A stretch of DNA of 64,000 bases from the IMG/VR virus record IMGVR_UViG_3300049141_000098, positions 32,001 to 96,000 of that record. One strand, given 5' to 3'. Source of the DNA: a virus (Duplodnaviria; Caudoviricetes). A program made the position numbers and the translations under genes. The notes beneath the pieces were generated by a model. The model was not told the origin of the DNA and did no database searches. It worked only from the letters and a program-made list of their open reading frames with translations. Every line of letters begins with the position of its first letter. Within the stretch, counting starts at the first letter, position 1. Of this stretch, positions 50,483-50,557 are shown one piece after another.

Positions 50483-50557
50483 CACCCCCGGTTAACCAGA
50501 GCGGCTACGGCATGTGTCCTTTTGCAGAAGAAGTAACCGTTGCCTTCACACCGGGTG
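50483..50557 (-). ncRNA. Minimal Y RNA-like gene lacking the tRNA domain
   Basis: Same GGUGUG-N9-GUUACUUC and UGGUUAACC boxes and the same inner stem, but only 75 nt. Confidence 0.8.

Follow-up and report, generated by a model that had tools for sequence, protein, structure and literature searches.

A short Y RNA-like unit without T, acceptor, or D arms heads the Y RNA array upstream of Ro60 in a Streptomyces-type phage

The window, by which we mean the whole 64-kb stretch of DNA that was analyzed, comes from an IMG/VR virus record of 259,646 bp that has direct terminal repeats; it covers bases 32001-96000 and has a GC content of about 63%. The source virus is a 260-kb Streptomyces-type phage. 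Among cultured phages it is closest to the Streptomyces phages Satis, Kradal, Quantum, and EhyElimayoE, which have 78% nucleotide identity to the window over the Ro gene and the adjoining array, and 72% identity in the Ro60 protein (72% likewise for the Ro-like protein of Satis taken singly). Read 5′ to 3′ on the minus strand, the locus consists of a promoter-like element, three Y RNA-like units, a terminator, and the Ro60 gene. The Ro60 gene (48411..50018, minus strand) encodes a TROVE plus vWA protein of 535 aa, with a Pfam TROVE match at 3e-15 and a weak vWA match, and its best PDB matches are 9KOP and 9L5Y (3e-23), which are structures of Ro60 from Thermus phage phiLo. Chen et al. 2014 looked for bacterial Y RNAs close to a Ro60 ortholog and on its strand (PMC4201824). 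Unit 1 lies upstream of the TROVE gene on the same strand, with 465 nt from the end of the unit to the start of the gene, so it has the proximity to Ro60 expected of a Y RNA.

Further upstream of the array there are two tRNA genes, one for Arg-TCG (51149-51220, minus strand, 52 bits) and one of the Met/Ile type with CAT (51385-51459, minus strand, 65 bits); at the same position the relatives have tRNA-His/Ile or larger tRNA clusters. Window positions 50600-50770 (minus strand) are about 170 nt of non-coding sequence between the terminator of a small Zn-finger-like ORF (50813-51046) and the Y RNA promoter-like element. This stretch is missing from Satis, Frankenweenie, and locus L004, where a CDS stops right at the promoter. 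Several relatives have an RNA ligase gene between the array and the Ro60 gene (L004 from about 1700 onward; L006 at about 1720-2480; L012 at 1729-2481, which is JustBecause gene 136 'RNA ligase'), a placement that recalls the bacterial rsr-yrl-rtcBA RNA-repair operons; the window has no such gene there.

Unit 1 is a short Y RNA-like gene of 75 nt (50483..50557, minus strand), recognized by its sequence, its fold, and homologs with compensatory changes. The outer stem P1 pairs CCCGGU at 50555-50550 with ACCGGG at 50492-50487, and the 5′ box GGUGUGAAGG occupies 50552-50543. Two inner stems follow, P2 of 3 bp (GGC with GCC, 50544-50542 with 50505-50503) and P3 of 5 bp (ACGGU with GCCGU, 50540-50536 with 50511-50507). 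A 9-mer, GGUUACUUC, runs over 50538-50530 with its GGU inside P3, and leads into a small hairpin of 4 bp, UUCU-GCAAA-AGGA, at 50529-50517. After that come five unpaired bases, the return strands, and the 3′ box UGGUUAACC at 50498-50490, all of these on the minus strand. The 24 nt between the P3 strands are UACUUC plus 18 nt, and contain no T-loop or D-arm sequence, whereas the corresponding interval in units 2 and 3 is about 85-110 nt with T and D arms.

A prior sequence-only reading of the window had described this as the first RNA of the array, 75 nt long, with both boxes and both stems kept. That description stands, in that 50483-50557 is the first of three units after the conserved TTGCGA-N18-TAGTGT, and GGUGUGAAGG, UGGUUAACC, and three stems are present. 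It had also said that the tRNA-like insert is replaced by about 20 nt with a GCAA-capped hairpin; the replacement and the small hairpin are there, in 24 nt, but the cap is a 5-nt GCAAA loop and not a GNRA tetraloop. Its phrase that there is no tRNA-like domain is right for the T, acceptor, and D arms and goes too far for the remainder, since the YUAY-bearing GGUUACUUC and a small V-like hairpin are kept.

Folded alone, unit 1 has a minimum free energy structure that is one long rod-like hairpin with paired ends, at -25.4 kcal/mol. The folding z-score is only -0.99, so the thermodynamics by itself is not significant. Of the 11 nt in UUACUUCUUCU, the 5′ part of the apical loop, 9 are pyrimidines, and this loop on a single rod-like hairpin gives unit 1 the form of the YrlB/Yrn2-type RNAs. 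The ORFs over unit 1 (50359-50895 on the minus strand, 50404-50688 on the plus strand) were considered as well. In Satis, Frankenweenie, and JustBecause every frame is interrupted within the region, which rules out the protein-coding reading.

The composite 5′ pattern GGTGTG-N6-12-GTTACTTC occurs 3 times in the 64-kb window, once in each array unit, with an expectation of 0.00. The 3′ box TGGTTAACC is found on the minus strand once per unit, with 0.11 expected by chance in the window, and an extra plus-strand match at 50157-50165 falls over the copy in unit 3 because the box is nearly palindromic. The 5′ box GGUGUGAAGG has U where the published GNCGAA motif and the vertebrate GGUCCGA that it resembles have C, and its resemblance to the consensus GNCGAAN0-1G is inexact; the copies in Satis, L006, and the Streptomycetaceae carry GGUGCGAAGG or GGUGCGCAGG in its place. 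The 3′ boxes of the three units (50490-50498, 50334-50342, and 50158-50166, minus strand) contain the palindrome GGUUAACC, which in L004 and L005 is 10 nt, CGGUUAACCG, and 4-nt palindromes are also found in the 3′ boxes of other lineages (GGCC, CUAG, GAUC). In the centroid structure of a whole-array fold, the 3′ box makes a tiny self-hairpin in place of P1.

Unit 2 (50316..50471, minus strand) is a Y RNA with a permuted tRNA-like domain, consisting of T arm, closing hairpin, and D arm, and with a long terminal stem; its core is matched at 50328-50459 by the covariance model R1 that is introduced below. Unit 3 (50139..50306, minus strand) is a YrlA-type Y RNA, likewise with a T arm, a closing hairpin, and a D arm between its P3 strands. 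Rfam YrlA (RF02553) matches it at 50168-50278 with 32.1 bits (E = 1.4e-4), which is weak beside the gathering score of 69. At the gathering threshold, the only Rfam matches are the two tRNAs, and cmscan at E values up to 10 gives unit 1 no match, YrlA and tRNA included. As it has neither T- or D-arm sequence nor a YrlA match, unit 1 falls outside YrlA as defined by the tRNA-like module.

What joins the short unit to the long ones is a common core. The 9-mer GGUUACUUC or a one-base variant of it is in every unit of all arrays examined, short or long, phage or bacterial, and the GUUACUUC part is invariant in 12 of 12 aligned short units. YUAY opens the variable loop of YrlA (Chen et al., PMC4201824), and unit 1 has it as the UUAC within the 9-mer; the 9-mer also includes the UA responsible for the kink of the stem in the crystal structure of YrlA (10.1101/312249). 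The small hairpin after the 9-mer also recurs in long units, as CUGCAAAAGG-type loops, in unit 2 of L009, and in unit 2 of JustBecause and Frankenweenie. Because both the 9-mer and the hairpin are found in long units, unit 1 is best described as the YrlA core minus T, acceptor, and D arms, and not as a stem with unrelated filler, and the tRNA-like arms come to look like an optional add-on to that core. The sequence-only reading had suggested that the Ro-binding element is mapped here by natural deletion, and the comparison of short with long units does delimit a shared core that includes the presumed Ro60-binding stem.

Upstream of unit 1, the promoter-like element TTGCGA-N18-TAGTGT (50567..50596, minus strand) stops 9 nt before the unit. 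The block is kept as TTGCG(A/G)-N18-TA(A/G/C)T(G/C)T in seven phage loci, ending 8-9 nt before the GCA that precedes P1, and the sequence further upstream diverges. A strict sigma-70 scan does not call the element, and we propose it as a promoter from conservation, with a putative transcription start at about 50559/50558. Since the block sits just before unit 1, the first base of the unit would be the primary 5′ end or lie no more than two bases from it. The spacer of the block is conserved as well (window 50567-50596, minus strand; L002, L003, L004, L006, L012), with an inverted repeat TGCGA-N5-TCGCA over the -35 hexamer that could be an operator for regulated Y RNA transcription. At the other end, an intrinsic terminator with a 9-bp GC stem and then a U tract (50100..50131, minus strand) closes the array.

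The three units are thus flanked by one conserved promoter-like block and one terminator, and a conserved motif lies in the spacers between them. Between units 1 and 2 this is AACUUCA at 50474..50480 (minus strand), a candidate RNase E-type (RN/CNU) processing site. As AACUU(C/G)A, the motif is 19-fold enriched in arrays, and 10 of 12 in-array copies are 28-42 nt before the next GUUACUUC. It is present in the spacers of most arrays (L007, L008, L009, L013, L014, L018, L030-L048), and just upstream of the short unit in about 10 of the 21 bacterial loci described below. Mycobacterial RNase E prefers RN/CNU in single-stranded RNA (PMC10641625), a preference that AACUU(C/G)A fits, so the motif is proposed by analogy as a processing signal. 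YrlA and YrlB of Mycobacterium smegmatis are processed from one precursor (PMC4201824). No RNA data set is listed among the public sequencing runs that contain the array. In runs X3, X4, X5, and X23, only short contigs of relatives cover parts of the array, and these do not bear on expression or on RNA ends.

Full-length units of 73-87 nt were found with covariance models in 13 actinophage and IMG/VR loci, where Ro60 is 35-86% identical to that of the window. Satis, Frankenweenie, JustBecause, L004, L005, and L006 all show one order, in which a promoter-like block is followed by a short unit of 73-76 nt, then by two tRNA-like units, and last by a terminator; in the three named phages the array lies in an unannotated gap upstream of a Ro-like gene. 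When six short units are aligned by plain MAFFT, standard pairs make up 95% of the pair cells, and 4 pairs have changed on both sides; in P2, for example, a G-C pair has become C-G and a C-G pair G-C, and in P3 an A-U pair has become G-C. The covariation score of the six was reached by no shuffle. R1, the covariance model built from these six, gives 90.3 bits to unit 1, which is one of its training sequences, and finds further full-length short units in L007, L008, L011, GiJojo, BRock, and Neville, the last with two units. It also finds long units, by way of the shared core. An R1 match in a Kitasatospora chromosome (L027) was set aside as a false positive, being inside GC-rich coding-like sequence and having no GUUACUUC.

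In a 24-unit alignment derived from the covariance model, and hence fitted to it and, like the model-derived alignments in general, leaning toward its structure, 92.6% of cells pair, compared with 31-40% when the partners are slid, and 16 of 20 pairs have changed on both sides. Those include all 7 pairs of P1, in which 94.9% of cells are paired. This P1 covariation, together with the end pairing in the minimum free energy fold, gives unit 1 the paired 5′- and 3′-end stem of a Y RNA. For the small apical hairpin, covariation is weak and the register varies between lineages. Plain MAFFT of 12 distant short units (alignment A1) followed by RNAalifold recovers the inner stem only, so a model-based alignment is needed at such distances.

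A second covariance model, R2, was applied to a sample of 151 genomes drawn from the family to which a Streptomyces genome belongs, the Streptomycetaceae, and gives 87 matches in 55 of the 151 genomes. These fall into a short class of 68-79 nt (22 matches in 20 of the 151 genomes), a medium class of 85-116 nt (25 matches), and a long class of 135-147 nt (40 matches). Twenty of the short loci and one more were examined, and in 17 of these 21 a Ro60 gene whose product is 39-43% identical to the phage protein begins on the same strand no more than a few hundred bases downstream, in most cases with a long unit between the short unit and the gene. Since R2 contains no protein information, this adjacency validates the RNA family. 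A 42-unit bacterial set has 87.7% of cells pairing, as against 34-53% when slid. Each of the 36 short units, folded by itself, gives one hairpin whose ends are paired; the mean z is -2.3, with 23 of the 36 below -2, by mononucleotide shuffles. Four Streptomycetaceae short units, L028 (G001:C11:190848-190923), L036, L038, and L048, have no Ro60 gene within about 3 kb; that of L028 is solitary, and upstream of it is the same TAATTGG...TACGGT promoter-like motif as in rsr-linked arrays.

Across these loci the 5′ and 3′ boxes vary by lineage, yet within an array every unit has the same boxes; it is in P2, P3, and the apical parts that the units differ from one another. The window, L004, and L005 have 5′ GGUGUGA with 3′ UGGUUAACC; Satis has GGUGCGA with UGGUUAACC; Frankenweenie and JustBecause have GGAGCG with GUUGGCC; GiJojo, BRock, and L011 have GAUGCG with UUUCUAG; and the Streptomycetaceae chromosomes have GGUGCG with UGAUCUC. 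Box sharing throughout an array is what would be expected if one Ro60 reads all of its units, the short one included, and concerted evolution is an alternative cause of the same sharing. In the short units of phages and bacteria alike, the apical UACUUC segment is the most conserved part, and the pyrimidine-rich apical loop is the best-conserved segment of all units taken together.

Y RNAs without a tRNA-like domain have been described before, namely YrlB of Salmonella and M. smegmatis and Yrn2 of Deinococcus (PMC4201824), and Yrl2 of Thermus phage phiLo (PMC12135203). Like unit 1, YrlB and Yrn2 are second, smaller RNAs beside a tRNA-like Y RNA and a Ro60 gene, and they are associated with Ro60/Rsr. 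The M. smegmatis YrlB is co-transcribed with YrlA in one precursor, lies between YrlA and rsr, and has a possible T arm, whereas unit 1 has no T arm and is first in its array. Binding to Ro60 has been shown for YrlB and Yrn2; unit 1, which we know from sequence, is likened to them by architecture and context. With YrlA (RF02553; structure 6CU1, 10.1101/312249), unit 1 shares the Ro-box terminal stem, the inner 'anticodon-like' stem, the YUAY (here UUAC) opening the variable loop or hairpin, and the placement at a Ro60 locus on the same strand; it differs in the absence of T arm, acceptor-like hairpin, and D arm, and in having no Rfam match.

Among phages, Chen et al. noted YrlA-like RNAs in 22 (PMC4201824), and a 2025 study found that the Ro60 of phiLo binds two phage Y RNA-like RNAs, of which one is a single compact hairpin (PMC12135203). 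These, Yrl1 and Yrl2, are like the window array in being phage-encoded and upstream of a phage Ro60 gene. The compact one, Yrl2, has a CGAA-type motif; in vitro it is bound by phage Ro60 and enters complexes with host PNPase (PMC12135203). PhiLo is of a different phage lineage with a different host, the window motif is UGAA and not CGAA, and GGUUACUUC is unreported in phiLo. Metazoan Y RNAs and nematode sbRNAs also resemble unit 1, in being about 70-110 nt with paired ends in a bulged helix and no tRNA-like domain, and their 5′-strand motif GGUCCGAAGG resembles the phage GGUG(C/U)GAAGG; however, they are Pol III transcripts with a La-binding U tail, and the likeness is one of architecture only. 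A likeness of phage GGUUACUUCAAUUGG-type loops to the upper stem of human Y1 was set aside, as no Rfam Y_RNA match supports it, the window units having no significant match to that family.

Since the literature already has both short Y RNAs next to tRNA-like ones and compact Y RNAs of phages with binding to phage Ro60, the array does not represent a new kind of system. The literature searched holds no description of Y RNAs from Streptomyces or its phages; the breadth in Streptomycetaceae and phages may therefore be unreported, yet it extends a known kind. The short unit is not unusual, as units of 68-87 nt are frequent in actinophage arrays and at Streptomycetaceae rsr loci and have published kin. 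The sequence-only reading had proposed a search for equally short homologs beside other TROVE genes, and such homologs are found, in 13 phage and IMG/VR loci and in the 17 of 21 bacterial loci that have Ro60 downstream. Judged by architecture and context, unit 1 is a real, conserved, ordinary member of the short Y RNA class.

Going from membership to function, we think it probable that unit 1 is expressed as a genuine short Y RNA and bound by Ro60. The scheme would be that unit 1 is the first cistron of a transcription unit of three Y RNAs, reaching from the conserved promoter to the terminator before the Ro60 gene; that the precursor is cut in the single-stranded spacers at the AA/CUU motif; and that the freed RNA of about 75 nt is bound by phage Ro60 through the 5′-strand box GGUG(U/C)GAAGG in a bulged terminal helix, in the same way as units 2 and 3. 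The outcome would be a second kind of Ro60 RNP, one without a tRNA elbow, with the invariant UACUUC and the pyrimidine-rich apical loop as its presumptive working surface. By analogy, that loop would most likely be a single-stranded platform for a partner that binds single-stranded RNA, such as host PNPase. The precedents are the binding of PNPase to Deinococcus Yrn1 by its KH/S1 domains and its complexes with the compact phiLo Yrl2 (PMC12135203). This role of the loop as an effector platform is put forward tentatively, as something that could well turn out otherwise. A bound unit 1 would in addition occlude the RNA-binding surface of Ro60, as any bound Y RNA would.

Occlusion could also be the whole function, as in the suggestion of the sequence-only reading that the RNA gates or sequesters Ro60 and recruits no effector; the short RNA would then occupy Ro60, or titrate host Rsr, in competition with the tRNA-like Y RNAs and have no effector surface. 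Unit 1 does lack the elbow of T and D arms to which the YrlA effector is believed to bind, gatekeeping has already been proposed for Y RNAs in general (10.1101/312249), and the phage 5′ box is nearly identical to that of the Streptomyces chromosomal Y RNAs, which makes cross-binding to host Rsr conceivable. Yet the strict conservation of a pyrimidine-rich UACUUC loop, the most conserved part of the short units, is unexpected for a mere cap, and suggests a working surface and argues against an inert one; and the phiLo Yrl2, compact as it is, still forms complexes with PNPase (PMC12135203). We regard a gate or decoy with no other role as rather unlikely, and on the UACUUC conservation and the PNPase precedents we favor, with modest confidence, a second and tRNA-independent tether.

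A more doubtful idea is that the short units make up an undescribed, widespread subfamily of 'core' Y RNAs, 68-79 nt long and present in Streptomycetaceae and their phages, in which the UACUUC loop and not the tRNA elbow would be the ancestral effector/Ro60 contact, and the box variants (GGUGUGA/GGUUAACC, GGAGCG/GUUGGCC, GAUGCG/UUUCUAG, GGUGCG/UGAUCUC) would be a recognition code. Were this speculation true, such a code would let a phage Ro60-Y RNA set work beside the host Rsr system, or intrude on it.

Unit 1 could on the other hand be no independent RNA at all, and serve as a structured 5′ leader of the Y RNA precursor, for transcript stability or as a processing scaffold, that is degraded after cleavage. 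It is directly at the putative transcription start, and its terminal stem, with 6-9 bp, falls far short of the extended stems of about 15 bp in units 2 and 3. But short units are not always first: L011 and Neville have one in second place, GiJojo and BRock have theirs next to last, and in VanLee and Neville a short unit ends the array. In about half of the bacterial loci a tRNA-like unit comes before them, and this variety of positions argues against a mere leader. Short units also retain the two Ro boxes, in whichever lineage-specific variant the long units have, and the solitary L028 unit has a promoter-like motif of its own, so we hold the leader explanation to be very improbable. Hardly credible is a decaying copy, that is, a YrlA-type unit that recently lost its tRNA-like insert and is now drifting, because, even if boxes and GGUUACUUC shared with its neighbors make an origin by duplication and deletion plausible, the short architecture persists with compensatory changes down to 35% Ro60 identity and in bacterial chromosomes, unit 1 is 83% identical to that of Satis, as also to those of Kradal and Quantum, against about 78% for the whole match of Ro gene and array, and stem-breaking substitutions or indels were looked for in L004, L005, and Satis and none seen.

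With unit 1 taken as a short Y RNA of the Ro60 system, the comparison defines, from what nature has conserved, the smallest Y RNA unit of actinobacteria and their phages, consisting of a bulged terminal helix that carries the Ro box, a pair of short stems, and the UACUUC loop. At 70-75 nt, this unit is a convenient substrate for experiments on Ro60 binding and on structure. Present records leave the short units without annotation or mis-call them as tRNAs, and some phage records do the same with the tRNA-like units. GenBank phage tRNAs upstream of Ro-like genes overlap permuted Y RNA domains at L003 4175-4265 (Frankenweenie 'tRNA-Pro'), L013 2269-2343 (GiJojo 'tRNA-Arg'), and L015 2204-2275 (VanLee 'tRNA-Arg'), and these annotated tRNA-Pro and tRNA-Arg genes are probably mis-called. 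The Satis array, at 523 nt, carries no annotation.
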